Shown: in pieces, positions 23,215 to 60,827 of the stretch
How positions within the stretch are numbered: position 1 is the first letter of the stretch
How the letters are laid out: the number at the start of each line of letters is the position of its first letter
Virus record (IMG/VR): IMGVR_UViG_3300044971_002537
Location: 1 to 64,000 of that record
Reading direction: 5' to 3' (one strand)
Source: a virus
DNA length: 64,000 nucleotides
Position numbers and translations under genes: made by a program
The notes under the pieces: generated by a model
What the model was told of the DNA's origin: nothing
Database searches by the model: none
The model's input: the letters and a program-made list of their open reading frames with translations, nothing else

Positions 23215-24040
23215 TCTGGGAATTCTAGCTCTGAATTCAGAGCGGCACTAGCAAAAGCATTTAAAATAATATGGTCATTTGGTGGGGCAAGTAGGTGCTG
23301 AGAGAGCACTCGAAACATCTCTCCCATAAGACGTGCAAGCTCAAACTGAGAGCTTGCGGACCTCATAGGTGAGCCAACCATTTTTAACGCCGATGAAGAT
23401 AACTCACAAGTGAACTCTCGATCATATTGATCGCGAATATCGGCTCTGATTCTAATTTCTTGAGACATTGTATTCCTTAGTAAAGGTCGGCTAAATAGCC
23501 GACAAGGCCGAATAAAATAGTAGAGCCAGATACGAAGGAGACTTTTGATAAAAGTCGTCTGGATACGTTGGTTTTGAAGTAAGCCAGCCAGACCCAAGCC
23601 TCTCCGAGGAATCCGATAACGATTAAGATCTTAGAGATTGTCATGGCTTCGCCACTTTCTTTTTAGCTTCTGTTTGTTCGGGTTTAACATGGAAAGTACT
23701 AGGTACTTCCTTGAGACTAGTTGGTGGGTCTTTTCTAATTGCATCATAATATGCTGCACTAAATGACATGGCTAAAGCTCCTTAGTCTCATTGTCCCACT
23801 GATATTTTCTTACTGCCGCATCTAGCATATCTTTCATATGAGAAGCTCTTATGCCAGAACTTTCCTCGTACCAGTAGGAACCATTATAGGTTCGGTAAAA
23901 AGTAATGTCAGATTGCCATCTTTTTCGCCACAAGAACCCTACTTTCGTAAGCAGTTCTACTTCGACCAAATAATTGGTTAAACCAATCCTTTGAACCGAT
24001 TTGATATTGTACTTGTGTTCTATCATGCTTGGTCCCCACA

Positions 24041-25150
24041 TTACAGCTCCACAACCCTCTCTATCACGAATGAGCGTTTCTTCCCTAATTCCCCATAGAT
24101 GGCGACCATCGCCCCGTCGTAGAGGAATCTGCCGTAGGTCTCATATTGATCAGCAAAGCACACAATATTATCGATTTCAGCGGAATCGTCGCTTGCGACG
24201 ATGAAGCACATCTTCTTGTCTGAAGACTTAATCACATGTTCTTTAACCTCAGAGATCCTTACGACGATAGTCCTCTTGCCCGGCTTACCCCTCATAATTT
24301 CTTTGCAGGTGGTATCCGCTACGCCTGCTGCTAAGCAAGCGTCCATATAGCTACATGACAGAGTAATCCCGATCGCAGCCTCCTCAGACGCAGCGATCTT
24401 CCCCGGCAGGTCGTGTAAGATTCTACCCGGATTTGTCAAGCGTTCAAGGATAATCTTCAATTTTTCTACGCGACCCTTGGTGGCACAGGCTCCACCTTCC
24501 TTCTTAAGCAGACAAGCTGCTTCCAAGGCTTCTGCTGGCGTCTTGAAGGACCTGTCCGTAAAGAAAGCCAGCTCTTTGTCGGACAGGTCAGAGAAGCACT
24601 CGTAATAGTGGAGCAGGGCCGCTCTGGAAACCCCCAGATAATGGAAGCACCCACAGTTAATGAGAGCTTCACAGGTCCTCTTGTTGATATGTGGCAGGAT
24701 TTCAGTCAGGTAGGTGACTAGGGATGCTCGAACCCCGTGAGTTCGCATTAATGCGAATAGCTTCTCTAATTCGCGATTAGCTACACCTTTGATATGGGAG
24801 AGGCCAAATACAACAGCCTCTCCCTTGATGAAGAAACCTTCCGTGAGGTATTCACACGAGGGCGGGAGAATCTCGATATTGTCCAACTTAGCAGACAGAA
24901 CCAGATTACGGACTTCCGCATGTGGATCTAACTTATGAGATGAATACTTTAACCATACCTCATAGAACTTTAGTGGTTTGTGGGCCTTGATATATGCCGA
25001 CCAATAAGAAGGGAATGAATAAGATACCGCGTGTGAATTGCTTGTAGCTACTCCGTTGGCGAAATAAATATGAGATTCTGAGTCTACCTCGATATCTACC
25101 GATCTAGAGGTTCCCAAAGAAGAGACTGAGAGTATTCTTTTAGCTTGCAT
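24041..25150 (-). CDS. dnaE: DnaE C-terminal part preceded by the C-half of a split intein
   Basis: IntC (38 aa) MQAKRIL...DIEVDSESHIYFANGVATSN, then SHAVSYS...YIKAH, FGLSHIKGV (HhH), INKRTCEALINCGCF and an OB fold (KMCFI.ASDDS). Confidence 0.9.
   Translation of the reverse strand: MQAKRILSVSSLGTSRSVDIEVDSESHIYFANGVATSNSHAVSYSFPSYWSAYIKAHKPLKFYEVWLKYSSHKLDPHAEVRNLVLSAKLDNIEILPPSCEYLTEGFFIKGEAVVFGLSHIKGVANRELEKLFALMRTHGVRASLVTYLTEILPHINKRTCEALINCGCFHYLGVSRAALLHYYECFSDLSDKELAFFTDRSFKTPAEALEAACLLKKEGGACATKGRVEKLKIILERLTNPGRILHDLPGKIAASEEAAIGITLSCSYMDACLAAGVADTTCKEIMRGKPGKRTIVVRISEVKEHVIKSSDKKMCFIVASDDSAEIDNIVCFADQYETYGRFLYDGAMVAIYGELGKKRSFVIERVVEL
25037..25150 (-). mobile_element. Split intein C-fragment (DnaE)
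   Basis: Block F/G pattern VDIEV...H.YFANG..TSN followed by a Ser nucleophile. Confidence 0.9.
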
Positions 25151-26025
25151 CCTATTTCCTCTGAACGGTTTAAAATGTCGCATTCCCATAATCTGATGAA
25201 TCTCTCGCCGGTCATTATGGCGTTCTTCTTATAGTCATTTACAGCATTTACTTTTTGAGTTTTGGTTTTTGGGCCATTGGGATAAATCTTAGGATTAGAG
25301 TGAAAATAGTCTCCGTCAACTTCGAGATACGTGTCCAGATCTATAAGGTAGAAATCGAATGAGAAGAAGGATACTCTTTTTTCCTCTTCATATTTGACAC
25401 CGATGGAGTCTAGGATTTCAGCCATTCTAATATGCGGCTTGCTTTTAGTCTGCTTGAAGACGCCTCTCTTTATCGAGGCTAGAGTAGTTTCTCTTAGCCG
25501 TTGTTTCGTCTTCTCTGAATGGGGCATTCCAGTATGGCCATGTACTAATCTTTTCTTTGCCGATTCACTTTGTTTACTCTTGGTCTCGTCTGAGAATTTC
25601 ATCCCGAGACGATCTTCTCCTATTTTCTTCATGATGTCTGAAGTATCGGCAGTCAGCCCCTTATTCCATGCTGGCTTTTTGTACATGGGGTTGTTTTCCC
25701 CAAGCCTTTCGGTCTTAGCCCTTTTTGACCACTCTAGTGTCCCCGGAGTCCTACCGCACGCTAGTTTCTTGTATCTGATGTGAGCACCAGAGATTGTGAG
25801 CTTTAGCGGTTTCTTACAAAGACCACAGGGACATTCTTCTCTAGGAATCTTTAACACATCTAGAAAGTACTCATCCAAACTTAACGAATGATCATTCTTA
25901 AGATGGTCTCTAAAAGCATGAGAGAAATATACTTTGCCGCCTCCTGCCTCCTTTTTGATATCTCCGAGTGATTTTTGACAAATTTCACATTTAGACCAGT
26001 CGTCTCGTGTAATCTCGTAACTCAT
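25096..26025 (-). CDS. Free-standing Vsr-like (DUF559/EDxHD-type) homing endonuclease with NUMOD3-like repeats
   Basis: Cys/His zinc motifs, GENNPMY, HSEKTKQRL, FDFY...LEVDGDYFHS, RLWECD; lies between the intein halves. Confidence 0.8.
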   Translation of the reverse strand: MSYEITRDDWSKCEICQKSLGDIKKEAGGGKVYFSHAFRDHLKNDHSLSLDEYFLDVLKIPREECPCGLCKKPLKLTISGAHIRYKKLACGRTPGTLEWSKRAKTERLGENNPMYKKPAWNKGLTADTSDIMKKIGEDRLGMKFSDETKSKQSESAKKRLVHGHTGMPHSEKTKQRLRETTLASIKRGVFKQTKSKPHIRMAEILDSIGVKYEEEKRVSFFSFDFYLIDLDTYLEVDGDYFHSNPKIYPNGPKTKTQKVNAVNDYKKNAIMTGERFIRLWECDILNRSEEIGCKLKEYSQSLLWEPLDR

Positions 26026-26066
26026 AGTATGGCCTTTCTTTATTAAGTCCCATACTATTGTATACG

Positions 26067-26336
26067 CTATTCCTCACACATCACTCTCTTATTTTCAGAG
26101 ATTATTTGCCACAGTGGAGTCGGAACACCATCTTCACATAGAAGCTTATGGTCTAGAGAGCATTCAATTTCATATCCGTCCTCTAAACAGACCTTGAATA
26201 GTTCCACCTCGCCATTTTCCATTTTATCTAGAACTTTAACCATGCCGTCTGGACTATTGACACAATCCCCTATCTTGAGTTCATCTATAGTTAAATTACC
26301 CCTATTAGAATCTACTATAGATAAAGGAGATACGCA
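26067..26336 (-). mobile_element. Split intein N-fragment (DnaE), 89 aa
   Basis: Starts with Cys (block A), has block B C-S-L-D-H, and ends at a stop codon. Confidence 0.9.
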
Positions 26337-28675: not shown

Positions 28676-28889
28676 GGCTTCGTCCTTATGTAAGCAATTA
28701 ACCTAGCTGCTTCTTCCTTCGTGAGTTTGGCGATAATCTCACCAATCTCTTCTGGAAAGTCTCCAGCGAGAACTTCTTGGCTATTCGGTGGAGATGGAGG
28801 AACAAGTCCCAGAGCTTCCAGAATGTATTCATTACTGAATGCTTCTTCCATATCTCCGAATCGAATTGGAAGAAAAGAACCTGTTGACA

Positions 28890-29300: not shown

Positions 29301-32300
29301 AGCTTTGCCTCCCAGCTTTGTGCCAAAGCATCTAATTCTTCGGGAAGAATATAATCCGATACCGAATAGTTTACCTCCATGCTGTATCGATTCACCAACC
29401 TTAGATCGCTCAGTAGTTCTTCGAGTTGAGACTTGGCAAATTCTATCATGATATCCGCAATACTGCCAGAGCAATCTGACCAACTTTCTCCGTTGGCCTC
29501 ATCCCACTCTTCGATCAATTTTCTCGCTGCTTCGTTCATTTGGTCCAGTCCGTAACAAATTGTTTCCAGTGGGCATACTCATCAGGGCTTAGACATGGAG
29601 TGGGCCCATCATCAAACAGATGCGGCATGTCTGGATAGGGGAATTCTTCGTAGAGACTTTCGCAATAGTGTAGAGTAGATATCTTTTTCAAGACATTCTC
29701 GACGAAGAATTCAATTTCCCCCTCGTAATTCTTAAGAGAGCAAGCGAACTCCCAAAAACCAGTTTCTTTATCGTAACGACTGCCACCATCTGGGTTTTCT
29801 ACCCTATCGCCAAAATCGTCTGGCATATAGGCTAGCATTCCGAAAGGAATAAAACCACACCGATCAAACCTGCACCATTTCTTTAGCGAGTCTGCCTCGT
29901 CGGGGAAATTATGCTGGTTAGTCTCGATAGACTTTTCCCAACGCATTGATTCATCGTCTGAGTGGAGAGAGGCGATTAGCCCCCTAAATTTTGGATGAAC
30001 TTCAACATGGGCTCTTAAGCCCGTATACATACCCATAGCTACGCCTCCCAATCATTATTTATATTGCAGGTTTTTATCTGATCCCAGAGTAGAGGGACGC
30101 CACCGGCGTCCTCCCAGTCTCTAAGATTCAGGAACGTACAAAACCCAGACTCTTGCTCTGGTTTCGAATGATCTCTTCCCCAAAATGGGCACAATCTCTC
30201 ACCCTCATAACAATATTGACCTGATGGGATTAGCTTCTGTTTAATCTCCCATACGGCCACACCATATGATATGGCTGTATTGTAGTCTGTTTGCTTTTCT
30301 TTTGGTATTTTTACGTAACCATCAGATAATAAGTCAATTTCCCATCGATTAACGTATCCTTTACTAGGATCAGCATCAGATACATTCAGGGCATACCAGA
30401 ACTCGTCACCCCTGACTAGGTTCCAGTTACCATTGAGAACATATCCTTGCTGGATTTTATCATTCTGGAATTTCTTGACTAGAACGGCAAGACGCAGCCA
30501 CGGCATGACATAATAGTTATCCATCTACTTCGCCTCGATTTGAGCTAATGGCTCACTTCCGAACCTCATTGGCACGTTATATTGGACTCCCCAGTATTCT
30601 GGCCGATCTCGGCCTTCAGCCCTCAATCGGTCCCACGCCAGCCTATGGCGAAGCACCTGCATTATATCCCAAGCTACAGTGCTTTCCGGATATATCTTAT
30701 TGCCAACCCCATAAGAGGCATTCTTCTCCAGCTCCGGAAAGATGACGCCCTTAAGAGCGTCAAATAGGTACTCTGAATTCCAATTGAATGAGCCGTTAGG
30801 CTCACACCAGCGGTCACCAAAAAGATTGCGTAGTTCGTCAATCTGCCCATGTTTTAGGCGTGAGTAGACTTCCAATGCTTCACAGATTATACGAGCCTGC
30901 TCTTTATTGATGGTGAGTGTGTAATCACCAGACGGTAATGATTCTTTGGAGTTCGTCTTCTTCATATTCGTCATAGTCCTCTTCTGCTATAACCTCGAAA
31001 TAGTATGGGCCACCAGTCGCTAAGTCTTCTTGAATACCTCCTGCTGGGATGAAAGAGTTACCCTCATCATCGGTAGCCTTGATGACCTTACAGTCACCAA
31101 GACCGGCATCGACTAGTTCTTTGCATTGTTTGAGTAGTTCATTCAGAGTCATTTAATTCTCCTAAAATTGAGATGCGTTTTGAGTTTGTAGCAATTTAAC
31201 AAGTGTATCAATCGCTTCTTCGCGAGTATCGAATGTCCCCGCTTGGCAGCAGTATGATTGACCACTTCTGACTTCAATGTGACCAACTTGGCCCATGGTC
31301 AGTGTCACTTCAATAATCTTCTCGTACTTTTCGTTGTCCAGACTTTCGCGTACTGAATAATGGCCAAGTTCAGACAGTATAGGATTAGAAAACCTTGAGT
31401 GCGTTATCATTTGATCCATCTTTCATTTTGCTGTACTAAAATTGAGATCCATCTGGGTATTGCCTATTTCCCTCTATGATTGTCAATTCATCAATTGCAT
31501 CTTTAAGGGCCTTATTAGTGGCCGAACGGGTCATCATAACACTCATAGACTGGCCACATGGACCAGTGCAATAGTGGATGCGTAAAGCCTCTAATCGCTC
31601 TACTAGCGACAGCCTGTCCCACTTTTGTGGGCCTTTAATCCACAGCATGTTCGGTTCCCTCGCGTAGGTCAGTGATTCGAATCTCTCTCCGGTCGGACCA
31701 AGCTTCCCGACTTAGCTTTTTCGCATAGGTCTGGGCAAGTTCAAGAGTCTCGAATTTTCTTTTACCGGACCACTCCATCATAAACTGGAAAACTCGATTT
31801 GCAACATATTTGTAGCGAGTTTCCACGAGAAACGGCTTATCTGACTTCTTGGGCTTCGCCCTAGCTTTGGTTTCATCGGGAGCATGAAATGCCTCCTCTT
31901 TTCGATCATTTGGGGATTTTTCCCAGTCATTCCTCATGACCAACCCTATCTAGCTGGACTTCCACTAAAGATGTACCCCTGAATCCATATTGTGGCATGA
32001 ACTCCATATGTAGAATTCTGATGCCTTCTGCGAATTTTACATTGAATTCTTCTGGAGTCATCGCCCAATCCCATCCATCACATTCCGAAAAATGCTCATA
32101 CTTCCAAAAGGTGGAGAGAGCATTTGCTGGGTCTACATAGCTGCTACTATTCTTGTTATATGAATCAGTACCACCATCATACTTGGTGATTTTTCCATCG
32201 TTGTCGATATGGTATACGGTTATGTAGTACATGGCTTCGCCTCTAGGTATATGGGCTCTGTAGTAAAATAGATATCGAATTCATCTATAGAACATTGTTC

Positions 32301-33623
32301 CCCGTCGAAATAAGCTTCGCCAATTTTGACACTCTTAGACTCAGATTCGTTCTCCTTAATCCTAGTTCCACGAAGAAGTAAGGTGTCACTCTTAAGAGCT
32401 TCTAGATATTCCGACAAGGTAATTCTTCTCATGCCTTCATATTCGAGGGCTTCGGTTCCGACCTTATACCAACCATCCTCTCGGGCCACTAGGCCCACAT
32501 AGATAGTGATACTAGCAATGCTCTGAATCTCTAGCATAAGGTGTAGGATAGCATCTTCAAGAGATCCGCCTATTGCTTCAGAGCTAAAGAACTGGTTTTC
32601 TGCCTTCCACCACGTCTCACCCCTAGGCCCCTTCTCCCAAAACTGGCAGAGTTCAGGAGACGGGGTTACTTCGAACAATTCTCTTTTACTGATCTGAAAC
32701 TTCATGGGCTTCGCCTTGCTGCGGGGCGTCAGCCCCTAGTTGCTTACTATGCTGGATTTCTCGCCAATCTTATGATCCACAATACCCGCCACCCCTTCAA
32801 AAACAGGTAGGACATCCCTAGTGGCCGGGAAGACTGGTGGGAATAGGAAATATTCACCCTTATTAAAATCCTGCAGATCCTTTACCTCTCTAAGGAGGGA
32901 TATCCCAATACTCCATATTTCCTCTGGAGGTATGGTGAAGTAGGCACTCCCGTATCCCTCCCACAATTTGAAGCTTTCCTCGATAGAGGATGGAACTCCA
33001 GTTCCAATGAGTCTTGCAGACTCCACGAACTCTTCCATGACTGACGTATGGATTGGTACGAAGGGAAACTGGGCAACCACACCAGCTACAATCTTTTGGA
33101 GAGCGACTATATAGATATCCCTGATCCTATTGATAACTAGGATAGAGAGGTCCTCAAGTTGATATGCATTGCCAATCATGTTCTCGTGCTTTTCAAAATT
33201 TTCCCATTGATTTCTGGGTAATTGGTAGCCCAAATTACAAACCGAGTGTATTCTCTTTTACCGGATTTCTCCAAAGTAAGAGCCAATAGCTCAGCGTCTA
33301 TAATGGTTGGAGACCCAATATCTGTGCCATCTTCGCAGCCACTGTAGTGCTCATAACCGATTTCAACTACAACGTCAGGATCGATTCCTTCTAGGAATTC
33401 GATCATGTCTTTCACTTTGAGTTGCATGTGGCACCTAATAGATGTAGGAATAAGGCTTCTGCTTTATCGTCATCGTAAAAACAGTCTAGCTCCGTGAGAT
33501 TTACAGCATCATAGATTGATGGGTAGGCTTTATGAAGCACTATCATTATAGATTGCCCCCATCTTAGGTGCTGATTCTTGATGGCACTTACCATTGTAGT
33601 AAATTTTATGAATTGTTCTAGGT

Positions 33624-35121: not shown

Positions 35122-36108
35122 TCATGGCTTCGCCTTAATCGCTTCTAGCTCTTTCAGATAGATAGCTTCGAAGTCCCTGAATTCGTCAATGAAGGGATAC
35201 TCATCAAAGCTTAAATGCTTAGGATAGGCTCGGGCCGCGTTGAAGAAGCGACTGAATAGAAGTCCATAAGGCATTGGATCGACTAGGTTGATCCCAATCA
35301 GGTCGGAGACCAAACAGCCTGCGGAACTTCCTCTTCCGATACTGCACAACTGTCCATCGCTTCTCCCCTTATTGACAAAGTCTGATACAATAAGGAAATA
35401 ACCAGATAGATTGGCCAACTCAATAACCTTCATCTCGTATCTGACGCGAGCGTCATACTCGGCTTTCTTGATAGGATCGAAGTTCTTCGTATGCTCTGCG
35501 AATCCCTCTTTTACTTTAGTCCAGAGTAGCTCAACTTCCCCGTCAGAGAATTTGGGGAGTTTTGGGGGAGCAGCAATTTCGAAATCTTCGAATTCATCGA
35601 TGAACGCATCATAGTCTATGTTTAGTTTAAGGCTAGGAGGGATCTCATCATACCCCATCATATGGAGACCTGCGGTCTCCTCTGTAAGCTCTGAGAGCTT
35701 GATTTTCAGTCCTAAGCACCGCATGATTCGATAGAACTCTTCATCAGACTTCTCTACATAGCGGCAGTCGGGGAGCTTTCCGGTAAAAGAATAGAGATGG
35801 GGTGAATTGGCTAAGGTGTCCCGATTGAGCCGGGCATGAATAGAGAACTCGTTCACGACAGACAATAGATCCTTCCATCCCTGAAGATTCTTGCAGAATG
35901 TGTAAGTCTCGCCAAAGTCGCACCCAATAATAGGTTTGATTTTGGCAGACTTACACTCTTCAATAAACTCCAGAGCGGCAGAGACATTGCCAAAGTCGCA
36001 GAGGCCCACTGCCTCATAACCTAAAGCTTTAGCCTTCTGTGCTATTTCCTTAGGCTTTGAGAAGGCTCGGTGAATGCTGTAATGGGTTCTATTGATCAGT
36101 GGTAACAT
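35122..36108 (-). CDS. dnaE: DnaE N-terminal part (PHP domain plus N-terminal palm segment), stand-alone gene
   Basis: THYSI, AVGLCDFGNV, IKPIIGCD, KNLQGWKDL, YFLIVSDFV, GRGSSAGCLVS.LIGI..VDP..YGLLFSRFFN; stops just before the PDID motif. Confidence 0.85.
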   Translation of the reverse strand: MLPLINRTHYSIHRAFSKPKEIAQKAKALGYEAVGLCDFGNVSAALEFIEECKSAKIKPIIGCDFGETYTFCKNLQGWKDLLSVVNEFSIHARLNRDTLANSPHLYSFTGKLPDCRYVEKSDEEFYRIMRCLGLKIKLSELTEETAGLHMMGYDEIPPSLKLNIDYDAFIDEFEDFEIAAPPKLPKFSDGEVELLWTKVKEGFAEHTKNFDPIKKAEYDARVRYEMKVIELANLSGYFLIVSDFVNKGRSDGQLCSIGRGSSAGCLVSDLIGINLVDPMPYGLLFSRFFNAARAYPKHLSFDEYPFIDEFRDFEAIYLKELEAIKAKP

Positions 36109-36675
36109 GGTTTTGCCTATACTGTTCTGGTGGTGCAGGTTTTATGACCGATGTCGTGAAAGGATTTGAATTTTGGTACTCCTCCATCAGGTAGCCAAAG
36201 TTCTTCCCATGTCCCGGTGGTGTAGTACTTAACCATCCATAGAGTTTGCTTAACTAGCTTTTTGGGTTGGGCGATCTGAGGAATCGGGCCTAGATAACAC
36301 CTCCAAACGTTTAACCTCGCTCTTGTTGGAGAATAATCTAGGACCGTATCGATACCACTGAGTACTGGAGTGGTATTATCTCTATCGCCTCCATAGGCCC
36401 ATAGCCCATTTTTATCTGGTTGGCACCAAGCCCACTGAAGATCTGGCATTTTGTATTCAGAGATTAGATCATGACTATCTGATTCCCCGAGATGAGAGCC
36501 GAATCTATCTACCTGATAAGATGTCTCCCTCTTCTCTCTACCATCTTCGAGCGGGAAGTATGAGTAGTAGGTATCAAATCCTACATGAATTGCTGGAATA
36601 GCTTGAGAGAATGGATCGGTACGTGATAGTACCTTACAGATATTTCCCGCCCGATTCACATAGGTTTTTCCGACT

Positions 36676-41278: not shown

Positions 41279-41322
41279 GACTACGTCCTTCGCTTGTGTT
41301 TTTCGTCGTTCGTTCTTCGTAT

Positions 41323-42580: not shown

Positions 42581-42623
42581 AAGGCTACGCCCTTAAGAGT
42601 AGGTACTTTTCTTTTACCGAAAG

Positions 42624-42697
42624 TACATCCGAGTAGATTTGCACTACTGACCTGCCGCTTAGAAGGCGGCTGCTCTATCTGACTGAGCTACGGATGC
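42624..42697 (-). tRNA. tRNA-Arg(UCU)
   Basis: GCATCCG/CGGATGT acceptor, GCTC/GAGC D stem, GCCGC-CTTCTAA-GCGGC, AGTAG-TGCAAAT-CTACT; no encoded CCA. Confidence 0.9.
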
Positions 42698-42763
42698 GTA
42701 AAATTGGCGAAGCCAATAAAATGTCCCGGCCCAATAGTGCATGGACCGGGACCTCGTTTTCCG

Positions 42764-42792
42764 ATTATAGCTGACCTTGGTCAGCTTGTCAA
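42764..42792 (-). promoter_or_regulatory. Consensus sigma70 promoter upstream of tRNA-Arg
   Basis: TTGACA, spacer AGCTGACCAAGGTCAGC (17 nt, palindromic), TATAAT. Confidence 0.8.
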
Positions 42793-44206: not shown

Positions 44207-44891
44207 AATGTTGGTCTCGAAACCAACCGGACAGCCGTTAGCCTGCCTTTGTCTATTGCCGCCGACGAATTTGGCAGACTGCTACAAGAGGCCATGTTAG
44301 TGGCCTCATTGTACTACTTACTTCTCGTTTGTCGAGTGGAAATGAATGAGTTTCCTCAAAAATTCCCAGAGGGGACGAGACGGTCTTCCCTCGTATCCGC
44401 TGCCACCGGCAGCATCCACACTGAACACCTGTACATCAAGCTGTAGATCTGAGACTACCTCTTCGACCCGACCATCCTTGAGACAGATGACTACGGTCCC
44501 ATCCACCTTGGTGGTTCCATCTAGGTTTCTGGCTGGAGTTGTTTGGATCATGGCTTCGCCTATTTGTACGGTGGGTAAGTGAGCTTTGCTCACTTTTAGT
44601 CGACGACTACCTCAACTTCCAACATTCTACATCGCTCGACGGCAAAGTCAAGAGCGTCTTGGAACATTTTGCTCATATTGGACAGCAGGAGATCGTGCCC
44701 ACTATTGATAGCTTTGATCACGCCCTTGTGTTGGCGAGCGGCAGCGTCTTTTGGATCGCCGAGCTTCTCATATTGGAGCCAATTTGGCCACAAGTGGCTC
44801 TCCCAAACACAATAGAAGAGCATCATCTCTGCTGGGGTTCCACGGACTGAGACGACTTCGTTGTCGGAACTTTTGCTTACTTTGATCATGA

Positions 44892-47401: not shown

Positions 47402-47455
47402 AATGGCCCTCCTTAATAGAATACGCTATTAAAGTGGATCATGAGAGAAAATTAA

Positions 47456-47729
47456 TGGACCGTGGCGGTTTCGCTCCGCCGTCATGGACTAATCTCATCA
47501 ATAACATCTACGGGTGTATGGGGCTAAAGCCCCCGGTTCGTGTGGTCAGCCAAGCTGACGTTGCGTATCGTTGCTCTCATGCTTTTGTAAGGAGGGGCAT
47601 GAGGCCCTCCAGCCTACGCGGCTACAGCAAAGGATTTTGCAGTTATTGTTCGGTCAATTTTTAAGGAGCCGTTGACCAACTCCTACCCGCAGTTATTGCC
47701 TTAATTGCCATTCAAATCAATTACGGCCC
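47456..47729 (-). ncRNA. ssrA: tmRNA, compact (274 nt); tag (A)AKSFAVAA
   Basis: GGGCCGT/ACGGTCC-A acceptor with G3:U70; T arm GGCGG-AGCGAAA-CCGCC; pk1 (GGAG/CTCC with GGTCAA/TTGACC); ATAACT then GCA AAA TCC TTT GCT GTA GCC GCG TAG at 47640-47614. Confidence 0.9.
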
Positions 47730-47955
47730 GTTTGGCTTCGCCTTAGTAGGGAGTCTCACTGAAAGTGAGGTTCCTTAGAATATGATCGGCCACTTCAATC
47801 CCGGAATAGGTCTCCCAATTCCCCGAGATTGCATTGTAATAGCCAATCTTCTTGTCGTCCCGGAAGTACTGGACTGAGACGATCATCTCATTCACTACGT
47901 ATTCGCCAATCTTATCAAAGAGGATGGTATCCTCAAAGTCTTCTCTGGTCATGGC

Positions 47956-49236
47956 CTAGCCTTTCAAGGACTCTTCGTCTTCAATAGAAACAACGCCATC
48001 GTCAAGCTGCTTAGTCTCATGACCAAGGAATACAGGAGACTTAGCTTTATATAGAGAAGGAGTAAGCCCATTGTCAATACGGATTACTACGCCTTCGTCT
48101 ACCGTCTTAGGATCAGACAGAGGAAGGCACTGTGAGTATCCACGATCAACATATCGCATGTCCATAAAGTCTTCGTAGTTGAAGTCTTTCTTATGCCCAC
48201 GCCACATTTCTGGGCAAATCTTTACTCCATTTTCAGTACACCACTTCTTCATACCATCATATGGCAGGTCTACACAGATACCGTCTTCGTTAACCACGGC
48301 AATTCGGTAAACATAGATGTCAAAACATCCTGCCTTCTGATCATATGTATAACCCTTCTGAATTGGCGAGTTGTTAGACCAACCAATAAGTTCGCCATAG
48401 ATCACCCAGTTCTTCGGAATAAGGTGGCCAATTTTATCTAGGGCCTGATTCCAAAGGTCTGAGCAGTAGAAGCCTACTTGATCTGTGTCCCTGATTTTAA
48501 CAACAGTTCGAGATCCTGCAATGAGTTGATAGTCAGATTTTCGAAAAAGCTTTTCGAGAAACTTTACGATCTTCCAATTGCCAAATCCCTTGTTGTACAG
48601 ACGAACTAGCCACTTTGGAAACTTGATCATCTTCTGGTGAGTCAGACGAAAACTCGTCCCGTGTAATTTTTGGCTGACAATGATGTATGCATCGTCATTT
48701 ACGGAAGAACGATTTCGTCCCCAGTTTGACGTATCGATATGCTCTGGGAACAGCTTTGAATTGAATAGCTGTCGAGTCTTGATCTTTGTAGATTTAGGCC
48801 CAGAAGACTGCTGTGTAAGAATAATGTACTTCTTACAAACTTCCTCGTCCGCAAGGACATTAAACATATCCCCTTCCTTTAGGTGGGAGATATCGCCCAA
48901 ATACCCAAGAGAAGAAATCGGCATGATCAAAGCAGAAGATACATTGCCACGAAGCTTGACAGCCCGCACACGTCTCTTGTTATTGATATAGCCCTTCTGA
49001 GTCTTATCCTTGTTTAGGTCTGACTTATCAAAAAGATTGTTCTCAAAACAATACTTATCAGAAAGCTGAGACTCTGCGGTAAAGAAGACATACAGTTGAT
49101 CTAGGTCATAGTCCTTAGGAACCAAGGCATTAAACCCGAACAATGGTACTCCGACCAGATTGTCCAGACCGTCCAGCTTGACTGTGGACTTGATCCGGAT
49201 GATAGTCGCACAATAGTTTTCATTATTCAGAATCAT
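47956..49236 (-). CDS. RNA ligase (Rnl2-like/DRB0094 type)
   Basis: Motif I QKLHGTS, GSR, IYGELIG, EGVVIR, YKAKS; N-terminal OB-like module (VRAVKLRGNVS). Confidence 0.8.
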   Translation of the reverse strand: MILNNENYCATIIRIKSTVKLDGLDNLVGVPLFGFNALVPKDYDLDQLYVFFTAESQLSDKYCFENNLFDKSDLNKDKTQKGYINNKRRVRAVKLRGNVSSALIMPISSLGYLGDISHLKEGDMFNVLADEEVCKKYIILTQQSSGPKSTKIKTRQLFNSKLFPEHIDTSNWGRNRSSVNDDAYIIVSQKLHGTSFRLTHQKMIKFPKWLVRLYNKGFGNWKIVKFLEKLFRKSDYQLIAGSRTVVKIRDTDQVGFYCSDLWNQALDKIGHLIPKNWVIYGELIGWSNNSPIQKGYTYDQKAGCFDIYVYRIAVVNEDGICVDLPYDGMKKWCTENGVKICPEMWRGHKKDFNYEDFMDMRYVDRGYSQCLPLSDPKTVDEGVVIRIDNGLTPSLYKAKSPVFLGHETKQLDDGVVSIEDEESLKG

Positions 49237-49636
49237 CTTGGTCTCCCCTGAGGCCGAGCCTCCTGATTTCTCTTTTACTGAGTTGTCTTTTCTTCCAACT
49301 GGTCAGACCACCGTATAGTATCATGGATTCACGGTGTGTCAAGATCTAAGTTGTTCATGGCTACGCCTTTTTAGTCGGAGTTTTCTAACAAGAATAAACG
49401 GCGATACCAATATCCAGCATACAGCAAAAAATACAAGGGAGGTCAAGACAAGCGGCCAAAACACAATACTTAAACAGACTGATTCGTCATTACTGAATGG
49501 CTCAGACGTAAGGAGTTGATCACTTTCCTGACTAAAGAATACCCACCAAATAGTTCGGGCTGCAATAGCTATAAATATTGGTGTGATATAGACAGGAATG
49601 ATCCAGTTCACGACTTCGTCCTTATAAATAGATAAA

Positions 49637-50141: not shown

Positions 50142-51633
50142 ATGTGGGGCAAAGCCCCTCTTATAATAAGTTGTAAAAGATCCGCTAAGATCTTATACGC
50201 CCGTACTCTCCCGTTTGATACTTTATTTTGGGGATTTTCTCAGAGATCCGGAGGATCTCACGATAGTCCCACGACCAAACGGCTGACTGAGGTGGACAGC
50301 TTGCTTTCCACCTCTGAAGGTTTCTCGCGAAATTGTTCCTCGTCCGAAGGGCTGTGTGATGATTGTACTCCCGTCGGAACGACGTGTCAAGGTCCCATTT
50401 CCGAACTTTGTGGTGACGCTGGTTTCACCAGCCTCAACCGAGACGCAGATGGCAAAAGCCATCAGTGCTTCAAGCACTCTCATGATTCTCCCCTAGATTA
50501 AGACTGTAATCATATCGAGGATCTCGAATTTTTCATCTTTAGTCATGGATTTCCTCAAAACATTCTGCAAGATGCCACTCGCCCGAGATTACGAGCATCA
50601 AGCCAAATTTGGAATCTTCCAGATGATCAATCTCATAGATGTTACCTACGGTACATCGGCAGAGATCTGAGATTCCATCCTTATGATAGTCTGGAGATTC
50701 CTTGATGCATTTGAACTTGGGGACCTTCCCCAGCTTATCCAGAATAGCTAGACAGCCAAGAGACAAACACCTCATTCGTTCTTCAGAATCAAAGATGCCG
50801 TCGCCGTCAGTGTACATACCGAGAACTGTCTCATCTCCACAGTCTGGATGTTCTACCCGAAAGTAACCATGTCGGAGACGGAAGTATCCGACATATTGGC
50901 CATCAATGAAGGCATCATACTGCTCAGGGCAAGCACCGCAAGTGCAAACAAGCTCAATTCCGAGGATATTCTGGTTCATGGCTTCGCCTCAGCACTAGTA
51001 AGAGGTTCCTCTGGAACCTCAAACAACTGGGATACGCCCAAATGATATCCCGCCATATATTCATGACTCTTAGCATTGTGGATACCATCCATGACACCTT
51101 CCTCATAAGTTCTCTTATTAGAGAACTGGTAGGTCATATCCGCCATCTGATCACGCAAGACCTGAGCTTCAGTCTTATGAAGCTCAATCTCATGATTCAG
51201 GAGTGTAACTTCCCTACTCCGAGACTCAAGCTTATGAGCACTTGAGAAGGTCATCCCCATCATAAACAGGCCAAATCCGGCAAACGCAAAATCTCTTGGG
51301 TTCATAATAGTTCCTTTATGGGTGGAATTTGATATTACTGAGCCACTTCAGTAAACTCAGGATCATGGCTCATTTCCTTTACGGCTCGGCCCAGAGCAAT
51401 GGCCAAACCACGCTTCTTGTTGTAGCAGTCGCTCTTGCTGCACTTGGCAATACCAGTGTACTGCTTTCCTTCTGAGTGAATCTCCACGATTGTAGATCCG
51501 CCCTTCGGAGACAGCATCGGAGTAAGAACCTTGGTCAGTGCGTTTTGGTAAACCCACTGATTCTTTACGATTCGATCGTGGTTGATGTAGACCCGGAAAC
51601 CAGCCTGTCGAAGCTCACTGATTAATTTGTGCA

Positions 51634-53275: not shown

Positions 53276-53287
53276 AAGCTTCGCCCT

Positions 53288-55154: not shown

Positions 55155-55229
55155 GTCTGGCTCCACTAATAGAAAGAAATAATATTCCATCTATTAATAC
55201 GCCCAAGATAGACGTGAGTTAATAAAAAA

Positions 55230-56344: not shown

Positions 56345-57409
56345 TAGCTTCGCCTCCTATATTAATTGATAAATTGACCATGCGGCCAATCCAAGACCAG
56401 ACAAATAAAGTATTACCCAGAGAGCACAGTTGTTTGTAGGCTTATCTATCTTCAATAGACACTCGTGACATATAATAATGCCGTCAGGCCCATGATAATC
56501 TACTCCGCACCTGTAGCATCGACAGACATAATCGCCGAAGGCATAGTCGTTGTCGGGTGTCCCAGACATTGGGACTTCGTAGAGCTTCATGGCTTCGCCT
56601 TGTAAAACTTCAGATCTTTTTAAGATCCTTCATCGCCTGAAAAAATATCTCAGTAGCTCTCATTACTTCTGGCGAAGGAGGATTCTGTTCCCTATAATCG
56701 CGAGCAGTAAGCTCGAACAGATAGGCAAAACCGGGATTCCTCTCACACTTACGCCGCATCGTATTACAAGCGTGTCTGTAGATGAAATCATCCCATTTTT
56801 CAATCAGCCACTGCATACAACTCTCCGAAGCGTCATAACATTGAAGAAGACACCAATCAGGTTGATCAACACAAGAACAAAACCAAGCGAAGAGGTTGTT
56901 CGGTCTGGAGATCCAATATCTCCAAGAGTATCGAAGATCAAAACAAACTGCATGATCAAAAGAGCAAAAGCTGCGGTTCCAAGAAAATATCTCATATGTT
57001 TTCCAGTAAAAGAAGAATGGGCTGAAAGAGCCAAGGTCATCCGTTCAAGTGTTCTCGTTCATCAATCCATCTGGACCGCAAGTCAATGCATACACCCTAA
57101 TTGGTCCATCATATGGATTTGATTTGGTAGGACCATCGTCCCCAACGATCATGTCATAGAAGGCTTCCATCTCTTCTTCTGTATCAAAGATACTGAACCC
57201 TTCACCATCCATCCTGATCTGGTGGTAGTTATCGCTCTCAGGATCTAAGAAGATGAAAGCTTTCTTCTGCTCTTCCAGATATCTGCCCCACGCTTCTGGA
57301 TCTGAAGATCTTGGCTCCTCTGTGCGTAATCCAGAAAAGAAAACAGCATACTGATTAGTAGCTAAGCAATATAGCTCCATCAGTCTAATAGAAGTGGCGT
57401 AATCTTTAC

Positions 57410-57679: not shown

Positions 57680-58503
57680 GAGTGCCTCATACTTTTCTAA
57701 GAAAAGCAAGACGGGTGAAATAAGCTTTACCACTATCTACCCAGACAATTGTGTCATTATGCTGCTTCTTGTCGAAGTTCCCGTATGAGTACAGAGCTGG
57801 TAGGCTACATCCTGTAGCAATGATAGTCCCAGTCTCCTCCCTCCCCGGCATAGCTGGATGATCGTTCTTAAAACCTCCCTTCGTGGGATAACAGGAGTAG
57901 CTTCCATCAGAAAAAGTAACTCTGTCCCCGACCTTGAGTGGTCCAACTTCTCCGATATTTGAAACTCCAGTATGGGTCAAAAATTCCATGTTGCACTCCT
58001 TAACTTCTTCAATTAAATCATAGGGATGAGGTGCTCTGTTGCACAAAGCGTATCCGCCCTCATACCACATTGCAGACACACTGGCATACCCATACGTAGA
58101 ACCATTAAAAGTAGTAATGGTGTACACTATGCCGGATCGTGACTTGTATCTTTTGCCGATTTCAAGTTTCATGGCTACGCCCTATTTGGAGGTATCGATA
58201 GTAACACACAGACCAGAACTACGTCCAGTAACCTTCAGGATAGGGCCTTCGGCCTTCAGGCCCAAAAACTCCTGAGTCGAGAAGCCATATAGGACATTGC
58301 TGAACTCAGTCCAATCTCCAGTCTTCGGGACCAGACGAAGGAAGTTAGCCAACTGGCAGGGGACCTTATCTGACCCGAAGGGTCTGAACTTCTTACCCTT
58401 TTCCCGCCATCCTAGCAGACGAATTCCATTGATTGAAGGACGCAAGCGAATCGTTCCGACGAACATGGGCTTTTCTCCAAGAAGGTTGTGTTCTGATGGA
58501 GTC

Positions 58504-58531
58504 ATTATATGATGGCTTCGCCATCTGTCAA
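58504..58531 (-). promoter_or_regulatory. Sigma70 promoter with a GGCGAAGCC hairpin as spacer
   Basis: TTGACA, spacer GATGGCGAAGCCATCA (16 nt), TATAAT. Confidence 0.75.
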
Positions 58532-59029
58532 GTGGAATTTCATAATCCGTCTAGTGAACTAATGTTCAGCTCGCCCCATTTACGTCCACCATCCTGCTCG
58601 GTTTGGATGTCCCAACATTTATCGCTGAATCGTTTATCAATCCCAGCATCAATGAGAAGAGATCCGATGTTACTTCCCTCGTGAGAGATATCGGCTCCAA
58701 GAGTGGCTATGGCCCGACCGAATAAACACCCTTTGTCCTGCTCTTCAGTGTTATCAACGAAGGGGCTATATGTTGCCGCTCCAGAAATGTCAGTACCAGT
58801 CAGAATCTGCGGACCACTAGCATATGAGCATTTGGGACTACCACACTCACGAATTTGGGCCGAAGTTACATAGGAGAAGTCCTTGTGAGTCTCTGTGAGA
58901 CTCTTAAGCTGGGCAATAAGTGCCCTCTTAAATCCAAGAGGCCCAAAGGCCTGAACGGTTTCTGATAGGGTCATTAGCTTCGCTCCCAAGAGATTGTAAT
59001 AGTTTTCCGCTTCCACCACCGCGTCTCAC

Positions 59030-59057
59030 ATTCTACCACGAATCCATCCTTTGTCAA
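59030..59057 (-). promoter_or_regulatory. Sigma70 promoter
   Basis: TTGACA, 16 nt ending TGG, TAGAAT (extended -10). Confidence 0.65.
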
Positions 59058-59639
59058 GTCTTCGAGGAAAGCTTTCCTCGCAGACTCCGGTAAAAGGAAA
59101 GGTCCGTCACATTGGAGGATTCGAAGGAACAATTGGGTAGACGTACTCCCCATTCTTCCAAGGCCAATGTCTGCTTACAGAGAAGCAGATATCTTCAATC
59201 CTAACACCATACTTCTCGGCCAATTGACCGAAGGTGACAGCACCATCCTGATTAGCATCAACTGCCATCTTATTGGCTAATTCCCAGAGGCCGACTTTGT
59301 CATAACGAAGCATAGGGCACCTATACATTTGTTCAGCGACACCACGTAACCGCTCTCCTAAACATCGGTGAAGCTTCTACTCTCAATTTTAGTTCTTCAA
59401 TTATCCACAACGCATCTTCAGCACTGATCGATATGCGAAGCCCATTAGTACCTTCGCGAATCATCCTGAAGTCGGCTCCGTGCTGATGAACCTTTGTGTC
59501 GCCGAACCACTCGATGATGTTCTCCCGGATCACTGGAACTGGGCCACTCATGGGGATTGGTTCAGAGAATAGCTCAAGTTTTCTCGGCTTGGACTCAGTT
59601 GGCCTTTGTTTTCTCATTCGTTTTCTCTTCGTTTTCTGC

Positions 59640-59668
59640 ATTTTAACAGATGCTAATCTGTTTGTCAA
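59640..59668 (-). promoter_or_regulatory. Sigma70 promoter with a palindromic spacer
   Basis: TTGACA, spacer AACAGATTAGCATCTGT (17 nt), TAAAAT. Confidence 0.7.
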
Positions 59669-60510
59669 GTGGTGTTTCTCTAGAATTCGTGGGGAGGAAT
59701 GGTGGAGAATAGAAAGGAATAGGTCACTGATCGTGGCTTTAAACAAGGCCTAAAAAGCAGGCTTTATTCCTTGTATTCCTAATAGAACAATAAGAAGGAC
59801 TAATAGGACAAACAAGAACAGGAGGAATGAGGGGTTGAAATGTGGTGGTATGGAACTGGAAGGGCTCATAGCATGCCATATTTTCCAATAACCCCAATGT
59901 TTTCCGCAATTTCGCGTCCTACATACTGGAATCTTCGTCCACTATCTTGTACTTGAAAGTCCCGGTTTGGTCGTCAAAGTGCCCGACTCCAGCCTCTATA
60001 GCTTGGTTCTGATAGACTTCTTCAGTCATCAGGTAGCCCAAAATCAGTCCGATCACGAAAAACAGGCCCATGAGGCCAGTAACAGTTGCTTTTTGATTGT
60101 CGCTCATATTAAAAACCCCAATGTTTTTGAGCAGTGGACACTGCTCGAAATGCCAAAAATGAGACAAGGGGCACGCCACAAAATGTTTGTGTTTACCCCG
60201 GTCTAAAAAGTCATTCATAACTGTGTCAAGATGAAAACTCCAATGTTTTTGAAGTTTCTCGAAACTTGGTCCGCCCCTACAAACCGTTCGAACACACTGG
60301 GCTTTAGCCCTATGGTTGCAGATCCGGCCACGGACATGATATCTCCACTATATTGGACATGGTGTGAGTTATGTTTCGTTCTGGCAATTTCTCAATGACC
60401 CAGTTCCAAGCAGACTCTTCCGTATTGAATGGGCCGAACGTCTTAAACGGCACTAGGGTATCTTCGCCCCAGTCTTCTTCTCTGTAATCAGAGAGAACTA
60501 CAATGTATTC

Positions 60511-60827
60511 CATGGCTTCGCCTCAATCGCATTCAGTAAAAAGGAAATGGGCCGACTTGCCCGAGGTCATCCGTTAAGATCTTCTTCGAAGAAAGTATCT
60601 TCTTCCTCTCTGTCCGGTCCAACCAATGGATAGATGAGTCTCGTGATCTCCATCTTTTTCATCCATTGTATCTTGTCTGCCGCAGCTTGGGACTTCTTTA
60701 TATCAAGATACGCTGCTCCTTGGCTAATATAAGGACCCTCGATTTGGATTACCTTATCCCCGACACTTGTAACCACACAGTACATGGCTTCGCCTCAATC
60801 GCATTCAGTAAAAAGGAAGTGGGCCGA
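60511..60827 (-). repeat. 45-bp direct repeat forming the leaders of two adjacent small genes
   Basis: 60511-60555 and 60783-60827 differ at one base; each ends GAGGCGAAGCC-ATG on the minus strand. Confidence 0.9.

Follow-up and report, generated by a model that had tools for sequence, protein, structure and literature searches.

Gene content and placement of the motif

The DNA analysed here, hereafter the window, comprises 64,000 nucleotides of a 139,854-bp contig from an uncultivated phage sampled in a lake. Between 22.7 and 64 kb it carries a minus-strand block of early-type genes, among them a PHP/DnaE gene, rIIA and an RNA ligase gene, together with a tRNA-Arg gene and a tmRNA-like RNA (41.6 bits, short of the gathering score of 47, with E = 1.5e-14; no ARAGORN call). 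A 9-mer, GGCGAAGCC, recurs in this block. The bare 9-mer was found 17 times in the window against 0.21 expected, with 15 of the 17 copies on the minus strand, and it directly abuts an ATG eight times, against 0.01 expected in shuffles, bearing out the recurrence at starts noted in a preliminary description of this DNA. Over the whole contig there are 16 minus-strand and 3 plus-strand copies, nearly all of the former lying within 23.6-62.8 kb.

Allowing up to two mismatches and a gap of 0 to 2 nt, 20 of the 79 gene starts of the early block bear a copy (Table 1). The gap to the start codon is 0 nt at 14 of these starts, 1 nt at five and 2 nt at one, and the start codon is ATG in all but one. 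An independent gene caller, run on an identical public contig, likewise chose the motif-adjacent starts. A plus-strand gene at contig position 105365 has GGAGGGCGAAGCCC on the plus strand, conserved in the related phage G001, indicating that the orientation of the motif follows that of the gene.

The preliminary description, whose interpretation is partly supported by our results, proved accurate as an observation. Its eight exact GGCGAAGCC-ATG sites were all found on the minus strand, and its variants (28676, 30037, 30526, 32707, 41279, 42583, 49612, 53277, 56346, 58173 and 58976) were each present beside a start codon. The protein ends EAKP, KAKP, RTKP and EAK that it had ascribed to the motif do arise from ATGA or TAG-ATG overlaps, at 50979, 35125, 28675 and 30524. 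Its statement that starts in the first 22 kb lack the motif holds for exact copies, but one compensated variant, GGTGAAACC-tt-ATG at 6699-6707, is a motif-like start, the only one in that region.

Table 1. Copies of the motif in the window, with the tmRNA-like gene for context
Position	Strand	Sequence	Context
6699..6707	-	GGTGAAACC	2-nt gap to ATG, 84-aa gene; third pair T-A
23645..23653	-	GGCGAAGCC	abuts ATG, 55-aa ORF; overlaps upstream stop (ATGA)
28676..28685	-	GGACGAAGCC	abuts ATG, 157-aa gene; stem with bulged A or A.C mismatch
30037..30045	-	GGCGTAGCT	before ATG; internal TAG is the upstream gene's stop codon
30526..30534	-	GGCGAAGTA	decayed; then g, then ATG
31852..31860	-	exact	intragenic, reads R-A-K-P; also in L001
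32233..32241	-	exact	before ATG, 101-aa gene
32707..32715	-	exact	1-nt gap to ATG, 161-aa gene
35126..35134	-	exact	before ATG, 107-aa gene; makes KAKP* end of PHP/DnaE N-terminal gene
36109..36117	-	GGCAAAACC	decayed; before ATG, PHP/DnaE gene
41279..41287	-	GACGTAGTC	before ATG, rIIA
42583..42591	-	GGCGTAGCC	2-nt gap to ATG, 169-aa gene
42703..42717	-	ATTGGC-TTC-GCCAAT	reverse-orientation copy in hairpin, past terminator-like hairpin, 5 nt before tRNA-Arg
43729..43737	-	exact	intragenic, read as Gly-Glu-Ala
44552..44560	-	exact	before ATG, 77-aa gene
47453..47729	-		tmRNA-like gene (Rfam RF00023); context only, outside the motif family
47734..47742	-	exact	no start codon; 4 nt upstream of tmRNA-like RNA
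47953..47961	-	GGC-TAG-GCC	before ATG, 69-aa gene; loop is stop codon of RNA ligase gene
49359..49367	-	GGCGTAGCC	ATG with just 9 codons, then promoter TTGACA-16-TACTAT; probably a relic junction
49612..49620	-	GACGAAGTC	compensated; abuts GTG, 90-aa ORF
50980..50988	-	exact	before ATG, 146-aa gene; upstream gene ends EAKP*
53277..53285	-	GGCGAAGCT	outer pair G.U; 1-nt gap to ATG, 159-aa gene
56346..56354	-	GGCGAAGCT	1-nt gap to ATG, 72-aa gene; AGGAG upstream of motif
56591..56599	-	exact	before ATG, 77-aa gene
58173..58181	-	GGCGTAGCC	before ATG, 161-aa gene
58514..58522	-	exact	within 16-nt spacer of consensus TTGACA/TATAAT promoter; no credible start
58976..58984	-	AGCGAAGCT	compensated; 1-nt gap to ATG, 144-aa gene
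60514..60522	-	exact	before ATG, 67-aa gene
60786..60794	-	exact	before ATG, 72-aa gene
62341..62349	-	exact	intragenic, read as Gly-Glu-Ala
62791..62805	-	GAAGGC-GAA-GCCTTC	exact motif atop longer 6-bp hairpin, 6 nt before an ATG

The motif as part of the ribosome-binding site

The first two G's of the motif form the 3' end of a UAAGG/GAGG-type Shine-Dalgarno (SD) sequence, and the remaining CGAAGCC is a fixed spacer of 7 nt. Simple complementarity to the anti-SD, which the preliminary description had itself named as grounds for refuting its proposal, does not account for CGAAGCC: predicted SD/anti-SD pairing at motif starts is no stronger than at other genes (median of -5.6 kcal/mol both with and without the motif). 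Starts without the motif have A-rich spacers, with C at position -1 in only 24%. The use of GG as the SD end, the 0- to 2-nt gap, the orientation with the gene and the preference for ATG all agree with the earlier proposal of a translation-initiation signal; the signal is not phage-wide as had been claimed, but is confined to one early-type gene block and to about 25% of its starts.

The arms GGC and GCC could pair into a 3-bp stem carrying a GNA triloop, its foot touching the AUG. The RNA stem is predicted to be worth only -1.3 kcal/mol and, in context, to form at under half of the sites. At orthologous starts in relatives, the 3-bp stem is kept with differing sequences (GGC..GCC, GAC..GTC and GGC..GTC for both the 69-aa gene and rIIA; GGC..GCC and ACC..GGT for the 101-aa gene), while the loop varies (GAA, GTA, AAA, TAG, GCA, CACA). 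Orthologues of the 69-aa gene carry GAC-GCA-GTC and GGC-GAA-GTC, those of rIIA GGCGTAGTC or GGC-CACA-GCC, and those of the 169-aa gene GGC-AAA-GCC, GGC-GAA-GCC or GGA-CAAAA-TCC; at the start orthologous to 32707..32715, the gap is 0 or 1 nt and one relative has GGCGAAGTC. In a set of 42 distinct ribosome-binding sites that share the CGNAG core, positions 2 and 8 covary (Fisher P = 0.0004), as do positions 1 and 9 (P = 0.02), compared with P = 0.06-0.08 for unpaired control positions, the kinship of these sequences meaning that the P values overstate independence. A broader covariation test gave a weak result. Hairpins of 3 bp beside a start number 37, versus 13.1 ± 3.4 in permutations, and 18 versus 10.9 ± 3.1 when the exact core is excluded. 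The retention of the stem in differing sequences suggests a mini-hairpin under selection, although the RNA stem is weak and stem-breaking decayed copies (GGCGAAACC, GGCAAAACC, AGCGAAGCC) occur about as often as copies with wobble or compensated pairs.

The motif pattern recurs in a related phage of 124 kb. In G001, the motif occurs 13 times forward and five times in reverse, versus 0 and 1 for a control pattern, and, within its early block, 7 of the 10 forward copies have an ATG no more than 3 nt downstream. The PHP/DnaE start, decayed in the window, has exact GGCGAAGCC in L003 and L007. The rIIA of L003 is only 57% identical, and the persistence of the exact 9-mer in this phage argues for sequence-specific recognition over recognition of any hairpin.

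A possible RNA operator or self-contained ribosome-binding site

Our preferred reading, held tentatively and at a probability of roughly 40%, is that the motif is an RNA operator inside the ribosome-binding site, through which a putative factor would control early-gene translation. GGCGAAGCC would be a start-associated cis element of early genes acting in mRNA, its GG completing the SD and its CGAAGCC filling the spacer, and the hairpin-shaped site would be the operator that a sequence-specific trans-acting factor recognises. This factor would be a protein of the phage or host, or possibly an RNA, and by binding or cutting at the motif it would switch translation of some 20 to 25 early messages together. 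The recurrence of this short ribosome-binding site at many gene junctions may also make it a portable one and a preferred joint for cassette gain, loss and exchange. We infer the action in RNA, the existence of the trans factor and the direction of regulation alike. The weak RNA stem and the frequency of decayed copies speak against an operator, as do exact copies away from starts: three lie within genes, others ahead of the tmRNA, in the spacer of a promoter and, in relatives, ahead of a terminator. The contig, which is only 72% complete, yielded no candidate for the factor and lacks RegA, RegB, S21, CsrA and cold-shock domains.

The switching logic would be that of T4 RegA, a repressor binding at the AUG of about 30 mRNAs, or of T4 RegB, a nuclease cutting at GG*AGRAYARAA, a site composed of SD plus spacer (PMC3014915). 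There too, the signals lie in the translation-initiation regions of many early messages, reaching past the SD to the spacer or the AUG, and allow joint post-transcriptional shut-off (PMC3014915). RegA sites, however, are A+U-rich and unstructured, RegB requires GGAG, and neither protein family is detectable here.

A somewhat unlikely alternative dispenses with the trans factor and takes the motif as a successful SD-plus-spacer module, whose local hairpin could shield the start region from arbitrary pairing with its neighbours or set a moderate level of translation, and which would spread because any cassette ending in the motif would restore expression to the gene that it displaces. One arrangement fits this: a window-specific 97-aa gene (44596-44889) brings the motif at its 3' end ahead of the resident 77-aa gene, and in three relatives, where the 77-aa gene has an ordinary GGAG-type site, homology ends exactly between motif and ATG. 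Ordinary SD register and spacing, loops that vary on a constant stem and the failure to find a trans factor in the contig fit this alternative as well. A structural or insulating role should nevertheless allow many sequences, whereas one exact 9-mer dominates the window phage, G001 and L003; moreover, the spacer is GC-rich and pairs with the SD, quite unlike the A-rich spacers of other genes, and the predicted hairpin is too weak for much insulation. A motif with a gap of 0 nt also puts GG at -11/-10 and U-G at -1/+1, reportedly the arrangement of the consensus RNA-polymerase pause.

Gene exchange at motif-bearing starts

Breakpoints of homology with relatives fall within -13 to +4 of the start in 27 of 71 comparisons (38%) at motif starts versus 37 of 215 (17%) at other starts, an approximately twofold excess (Fisher P = 0.0004). 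Joints lie exactly between motif and ATG at 44551, 35125, 32232 and 50979, and there are clear cases of cassette insertion and deletion at the motif among relatives. Precisely at the junction at 32233..32241, an 86-aa gene is found in some relatives and missing from others; L024 lacks the 69-aa gene, which is bounded by GGCTAGGCC and GGCGAAGCC, and has its RNA ligase gene directly against the tmRNA; and the G001 site orthologous to 30526..30534 has the exact motif with a different gene downstream. Motif-bearing starts mark places of gene swapping between related phages. The copies at 60514..60522 and 60786..60794 have about 45 nt of upstream sequence in common. The preliminary description had considered a recombination scar or cassette boundary; the breakpoints fit a boundary, but the motif is more than a passive scar, since it persists at 57% rIIA identity and shows compensatory stem changes.

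These junctions could also reflect an element acting in DNA. The core of the motif is exactly GCGAAGC, which as DNA forms a very stable mini-hairpin, as had been pointed out earlier, and the main variant, GCGTAGC, belongs to the same GCGNAGC class described by Hirao and colleagues (review, PMC13037366). In single strands, nucleases, polymerases or recombination proteins would stall at this hairpin or be drawn to it, with the result that new joints form there, and the adjacency to ATG would reflect where joints survive selection. We consider this unlikely. It would account for the breakpoints, for copies before tmRNA, terminator and promoter, that is, at any kind of junction, for variants that fall mostly within the GCGNAGC or C-GNA-G class (PMC13037366), and for reverse-orientation copies past a conserved terminator, relatives keeping GGCT(T/A)CGCC past the same terminator as at 42703..42717. 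Against this stands a strong orientation bias that follows gene direction, plus strand included, and DNA events by themselves would hardly yield a 0- to 2-nt register merged with the SD. Orthologous starts, moreover, keep the motif over deep divergence, loop variants AAA, TAG and CTA are without the G.A pair that the stable DNA hairpin requires, no recombinase is associated with the motif, and 9 bp is short for homologous exchange. The known natural mini-hairpins of this class are found at single-strand replication origins and at promoters of the phage N4 virion RNA polymerase, not beside start codons, and RNA versions are far less stable.

Shuffling of this kind would be akin to that which promoter-early stem-loop (PeSL) cassettes mediate in T4-type phages (Arbiol et al. 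2010, PMC2839356; Comeau et al. 2014, PMC4122927), with integron attC sites as a looser parallel. PeSLs, too, are short regulatory modules that recur between the small early genes of plastic regions, and genes are inserted, deleted or replaced at them from one related phage to the next. They are, however, transcriptional elements of tens of bases, a terminator stem-loop plus a strong promoter, in contrast to a 9-nt ribosome-binding-site element within operons.

The copy beside the tmRNA

The copy 4 nt before the tmRNA 5' end, correctly noted in the preliminary description, occurs in three related phages. It would suit the RNA processing that the same description had offered as an alternative, with a hairpin-specific endoribonuclease cutting at or just past the stem and thereby separating cistrons, inactivating early messages by SD removal or freeing the tmRNA precursor. 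T4 RegB gives a precedent, cutting within early messages at a site of SD plus spacer (PMC3014915), and the motif is one base away from GGAGAA. Processing is nevertheless improbable, given that the tmRNA of L024 and that of L005 have no accompanying motif and that neither RegB nor another nuclease candidate was found in the contig.

Comparison with start-associated sequences

With or without an operator function, the closest known counterparts are the PeSL cassettes and the start-associated sequence (SAS), GGGATAGGAGCCC, of cluster K mycobacteriophages, the latter unexplained in function (Pope et al. 2011, PMC3203893; 2025 survey, PMC12699233). SAS and the present motif are both short asymmetric motifs with symmetric outer arms (GGG...CCC in SAS, GGC...GCC here) in similar copy number (11 to 19 versus about 20 to 25), confined to the genome's non-structural half, in a single orientation and a few nucleotides before mostly ATG starts. 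Both overlap the SD, yet are conserved where pairing with 16S rRNA is impossible, and both at times contain upstream stop codons. Their sequences are unrelated. The motif described here has 9 nt rather than 13, includes only the last two SD bases rather than a whole AGGAG, leaves 0 to 2 nt to the start codon rather than 3 to 7, is unaccompanied by ESAS-like inverted repeats and has some evidence of stem covariation. The SAS phages are temperate actinophages, whereas the phage studied here is large and of lytic type, with sigma-70-type early promoters and rIIA/rIIB.

Motif copies abut start codons in the early block

The phage genome is represented by a single virus contig of 139,854 bp (44% G+C; CheckV completeness, 72%), whose first 64 kb form the window and in which nearly every gene between 22.7 and 64 kb lies on the minus strand. 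This block contains rIIA, rIIB, a DnaE-type polymerase in pieces, RNA ligase and DNA ligase, together with homing-endonuclease-like genes, four tRNAs and numerous small ORFs without Pfam matches. Perfect or near-perfect TTGACA/TATAAT promoters were found on the minus strand only, which marks the block as early-type and transcribed by the host polymerase. No DNA-level similarity to any named phage was found, scans of IMG/VR and metagenomes added few further relatives, and a Pfam search with ten motif-bearing genes gave zero matches. HNH and GIY-YIG-like genes sit between the polymerase pieces, and endonuclease VII-like or HNH genes are inserted beside rIIA in relatives (the related contig L007 and the contig of P0017).

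The motif GGCGAAGCC occurred 17 times in the window against 0.21 expected, with 15 copies on the minus strand. Over the whole contig, 16 copies are on the minus and 3 on the plus strand, and all minus copies except one fall within 23.6-62.8 kb, among rIIA/B, the DnaE pieces, the ligases and small ORFans, that is, in the non-structural part of the genome. The recurrence of the motif directly before ATG, as claimed in the preliminary description, was borne out by eight copies of GGCGAAGCC-ATG in the window against 0.01 expected, and every variant listed there was found in the sequence. We then scanned each ATG, GTG and TTG for 9-mers that ended 0 to 3 nt upstream and departed from the motif at no more than two positions. 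In the early block, a start marked in this way was nearly always the first one of a genuine ORF, and 20 of the 79 curated starts carried such a copy, separated from the start codon (ATG in 19 cases, GTG in 1) by 0 nt (n = 14), 1 nt (n = 5) or 2 nt (n = 1). The rIIA start has an additional variant with three mismatches. A public contig covers 29.5-51.3 kb with identical sequence, and the gene calls made on it by others share the motif-adjacent starts. Translational coupling was set aside, since overlap with the upstream gene was not commoner at motif starts (24% against 46% at other starts); gaps of 0 to 12 nt were, however, favored there.

A 90-amino-acid hydrophobic ORF has a GTG start directly after GACGAAGTC, and its stop codon falls in the RNA ligase promoter, within the -35 hexamer; coding potential around it (49.2-50.1 kb) is low. 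The spacers preceding the motifs at 44552 and 32707 contain the hairpins GTGAGC-AAA-GCTCAC and GGGGC-TGAC-GCCCC, respectively.

Features of the early block and of related contigs (window coordinates unless a contig is named)
Feature	Position	Strand	Remark
rIIA	39506-41278	minus	early block
tmRNA-like gene	47453-47729	minus	Rfam 41.6 bits, E = 1.5e-14, below gathering score
Non-start motif copy	before tmRNA		gene junction
Non-start motif copy	49359		before promoter
Non-start motif copy	58514-58522		inside promoter spacer
Non-start motif copies	L001 6588-6660, L003 3546-3620, L008 3688-3760		range covers the copy and the conserved terminator after it
HNH and GIY-YIG-like genes	25096-26025, 54078-55190		between polymerase pieces
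Endonuclease VII-like or HNH gene	L007 890-1645	minus	beside rIIA
90-aa hydrophobic ORF	49339-49611	minus	GTG start
Spacer with small hairpin	44560-44600	minus	precedes 44552 motif
97-aa gene	44596-44889		upstream of 77-aa gene
Shared ~45-nt sequence	60514-60560, 60786-60832	minus	two adjacent small genes
tRNA-Arg	42690-42800	minus	region including its own promoter, 42792-42764
Terminator-like hairpin	42752-42723		3' of tRNA-Arg promoter
332-codon open frame, upstream region	whole contig 105355-105367	plus	beyond the window
332-codon open frame	G001 110563	minus

Shine-Dalgarno pairing accounts for part of the motif

The motif is usually preceded by T(A/G)A or (A/G)A, giving UAAGG, UGAGG, AGAGG or UAGG, so that an ordinary Shine-Dalgarno (SD) sequence is formed that ends with the motif GG and lies 7 to 9 nt from the AUG. 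The non-motif genes of the phage have plain GGAG or AGGAG and A-rich spacers, with C at position -1 in just 24%. Predicted SD/anti-SD pairing had the same median, -5.6 kcal/mol, at motif and non-motif starts. CGAAGCC has no complementarity to the canonical 16S tail, the SD overlap being limited to GG, and at its third position the motif has a C that does not match the extended SD GGUGA. Since starts with and without the motif do not differ in pairing energy, the ribosome accounts for GG, not for CGAAGCC, and anti-SD complementarity is out as the whole explanation. Thus, neither a lack of enrichment at starts nor simple anti-SD pairing, the two outcomes named beforehand as speaking against a distinct signal, was what we found.

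Signals for and against a conserved hairpin

The GGC/GCC arms are able to pair around a GNA triloop, and variants in the window comprise GGC-GTA-GCC, GAC-GAA-GTC, GAC-GTA-GTC, AGC-GAA-GCT, GGC-TAG-GCC and GGT-GAA-ACC. Across phages, the start of the 69-aa gene shows GGC-TAG-GCC, GAC-GCA-GTC and GGC-GAA-GTC, that of the 169-aa gene loops GTA, AAA and GAA as well as GGA-CAAAA-TCC, that of rIIA GAC..GTC, GGC..GTC and GGC-CACA-GCC, and that of the 101-aa gene GGCGAAGCC and G-ACC-GAA-GGT-C. Among 42 distinct ribosome-binding sites (RBSs) with a CGNAG core, covariation gave Fisher P values of 0.0004 for positions 2/8 and 0.02 for positions 1/9, against 0.06 to 0.08 for unpaired control positions, all of them optimistic because the compared sequences are mutually related. 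In a permutation of 271 distinct upstream contexts, with 5' halves newly joined to 3' halves, 13.1 ± 3.4 start-adjacent 3-bp hairpins were obtained versus 37 observed; for those without the exact core, the values were 10.9 ± 3.1 and 18. Several observations count against the hairpin. There was no general excess of 3-bp hairpins before arbitrary ATG triplets, the signal being confined to real starts and the motif family. A broader covariation test gave a weak signal. Decayed copies with a broken stem are common (e.g., GGCGAAACC, GGCAAAACC at the polymerase gene and AGCGAAGCC), and the RNA stem is predicted at only -1.3 kcal/mol and, in context, at fewer than half of the sites. Overall, a hairpin is likely but not proven, with mixed signals for upkeep of its base pairs in RNA by compensatory change.

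Orientation follows the gene in related phages

The motif was present in the close relatives L001/L010, L002, L007, L008, L024 and L025, and also in L003/L004 despite just 57% rIIA identity; it was almost missing from L005, L006, L018-L020 and L023. G001, a related 123.6-kb phage record, has 13 forward and 5 reverse copies, versus 0 and 1 for a reversed-pattern control; in its early block an ATG follows within 3 nt in 7 of 10 forward copies, and one copy stands before the tmRNA. At a plus-strand gene (contig position 105365), GGAGGGCGAAGCCC lies on the plus strand in both our contig and G001, showing that orientation tracks the gene and not the replication strand and ruling out a replication-strand-specific primase signal. 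In both phages, a GNRA-loop terminator and GGAGGGCGAAGCCC lie ahead of a 332-codon open frame that has ATC, not ATG, at the expected in-frame start, which may be a non-canonical start.

Homology breakpoints are in excess at motif starts

The relatives are strongly mosaic, and the suggestion that breakpoints of gene gain and loss fall on the motif found support: homology ended within -13 to +4 of the start in 27 of 71 comparisons at motif starts (38%) versus 37 of 215 at other starts (17%; Fisher P = 0.0004). Indel or replacement joints between relatives lie at the motif at, e.g., 32232, 35125, 44551 and 47952, frequently right at the border of motif and ATG. In the window, the motif precedes the 77-aa gene at 44551, which has GGAGATATC or GGAGGTGTC in other phages, and the 97-aa gene upstream of it is a window-specific insertion with the motif at its end. 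At junction 32232, an 86-aa gene is variably present or absent, while the 69-aa gene, bounded by GGCTAGGCC and GGCGAAGCC, is absent from L024, in which ligase gene and tmRNA are directly adjacent.

The non-start copies in the table likewise lie at junctions. L001, L003 and L008 each have an exact motif with no gene behind it but a conserved long T-run hairpin (CCCTGATATAC...GTATATCCTTTT); this segment of about 115 to 145 nt is missing from the window at 44282-44286. Two adjacent small genes have in common ...ggcccaYttcctttttactgaatgcgattga plus the motif, which suggests either a recent duplication of the junction or paralogous gene ends.

A candidate operator within the ribosome-binding site

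The exact 9-mer retained across deep divergence, its orientation, its register between SD and AUG and its restriction to early genes point to sequence-specific recognition in mRNA. We therefore favor, with a probability of roughly 40%, the reading that the motif is a hairpin-shaped operator inside the RBS. A putative sequence-specific factor would recognize it in mRNA and, by binding in the RBS, would jointly regulate the motif-bearing early messages; cassette exchange would then be a by-product of one RBS common to many junctions. Such early-message regulons exist, as exemplified by RegA/RegB of T4 (PMC3014915). The contig, 72% complete, gave no match to RegA (PF01818) or RegB (PF10715), and S21, CsrA and CSD genes were not found in it.

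That the motif is instead a self-contained portable RBS is doubtful; the ordinary SD register and spacing and the motif at the end of the inserted 97-aa gene would fit it. An element acting in DNA at gene junctions, in line with the recombination scar first proposed, is unlikely. The breakpoint excess and the copies away from starts fit such an element, and GCGAAGC is as DNA a classic ultra-stable mini-hairpin (PMC13037366), a class (GCGNAGC or C-GNA-G with sheared G.A) matched by sequence in most copies as GCGAAGC or GCGTAGC; set against these is the fixed register to SD and AUG. Still less probable is an RNA-processing site, which overlaps with the operator reading; a RegB-type nuclease site was rejected because the core is GGCG instead of GGAG and PF10715 has no match in the 72%-complete contig. 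A long shot is that the early region consists of small ORF cassettes carrying GGCGAAGCC at their 3' end as a portable RBS, which would be both an on/off switch for a phage factor and the preferred exchange joint. If true, this would amount to an integron-like gene-capture grammar written in RBSs and could also account for the start-associated sequences (SAS) of mycobacteriophages. An N4-type hairpin promoter or leaderless transcripts were dismissed, the register being wrong and sigma-70 consensus promoters being present.

Comparison with known phage elements

In kind, the nearest counterpart is the SAS of cluster K mycobacteriophages, described in 2011 and still without known function (PMC3203893). 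The two resemble each other in how many copies there are, which genome half they occupy, their orientation, preference for ATG, symmetric arms and SD overlap, but they are unlike in sequence and length, in how far they lie from the start and in the type of phage. Like SAS, the motif is short, asymmetric and repeated, start-adjacent in a single orientation, located in the non-structural region and conserved beyond 16S pairing. It is not SAS proper (GGGATAGGAGCCC, 13 bp, at most two deviations, often with ESAS), since sequence and length differ, and the motif contexts contain no common upstream inverted repeats of the ESAS kind. Here a SAS-like design has been reached by an unrelated phage lineage whose host is of another type, and to this design the motif adds fusion to the start codon, signs of a conserved mini-hairpin and a measurable link to gene-swap breakpoints. 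The promoter-early stem-loop (PeSL) cassettes of T4-type phages resemble it in gene shuffling at the element, with indels and replacements between related phages, but combine a terminator stem-loop with a strong sigma-70-like early promoter. The motif lacks this composite: a single copy lies within a promoter, and most are intra-operonic without promoter or terminator, so it is not a PeSL cassette. If a trans factor exists, the motif would define a new post-transcriptional regulon of early phage genes; if not, it would be a natural context-independent RBS module, relevant to phage mosaicism and synthetic operon design.

The tmRNA and tRNA-Arg neighborhood

The tmRNA-like gene, on which ARAGORN made no call, is conserved in L001, L002, L024 and L005, and its RNA lies downstream of the motif copy at 47734. 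Its frame, GCA AAA TCC TTT GCT GTA GCC GCG TAG, would encode AKSFAVAA*, a plausible tag ending in AA.

Antisense masking of the motif was set aside as doubtful: the pre-tRNA-Arg leader (42703-42717) provides the sole transcribed-strand complement that lies within a plausible RNA, with only 10 complementary bases, and these are sequestered in the leader's own 6-bp hairpin. For the tRNA-Arg there is a separate perfect TTGACA-17-TATAAT promoter, followed by the terminator-like hairpin, a reverse-motif hairpin (ATTGGC-TTC-GCCAAT) and the tRNA. Relatives retain terminator + TTTTT + GGCT(T/A)CGCC, there preceding an 88-aa gene, the reverse motif copy thus being part of a conserved terminator module.
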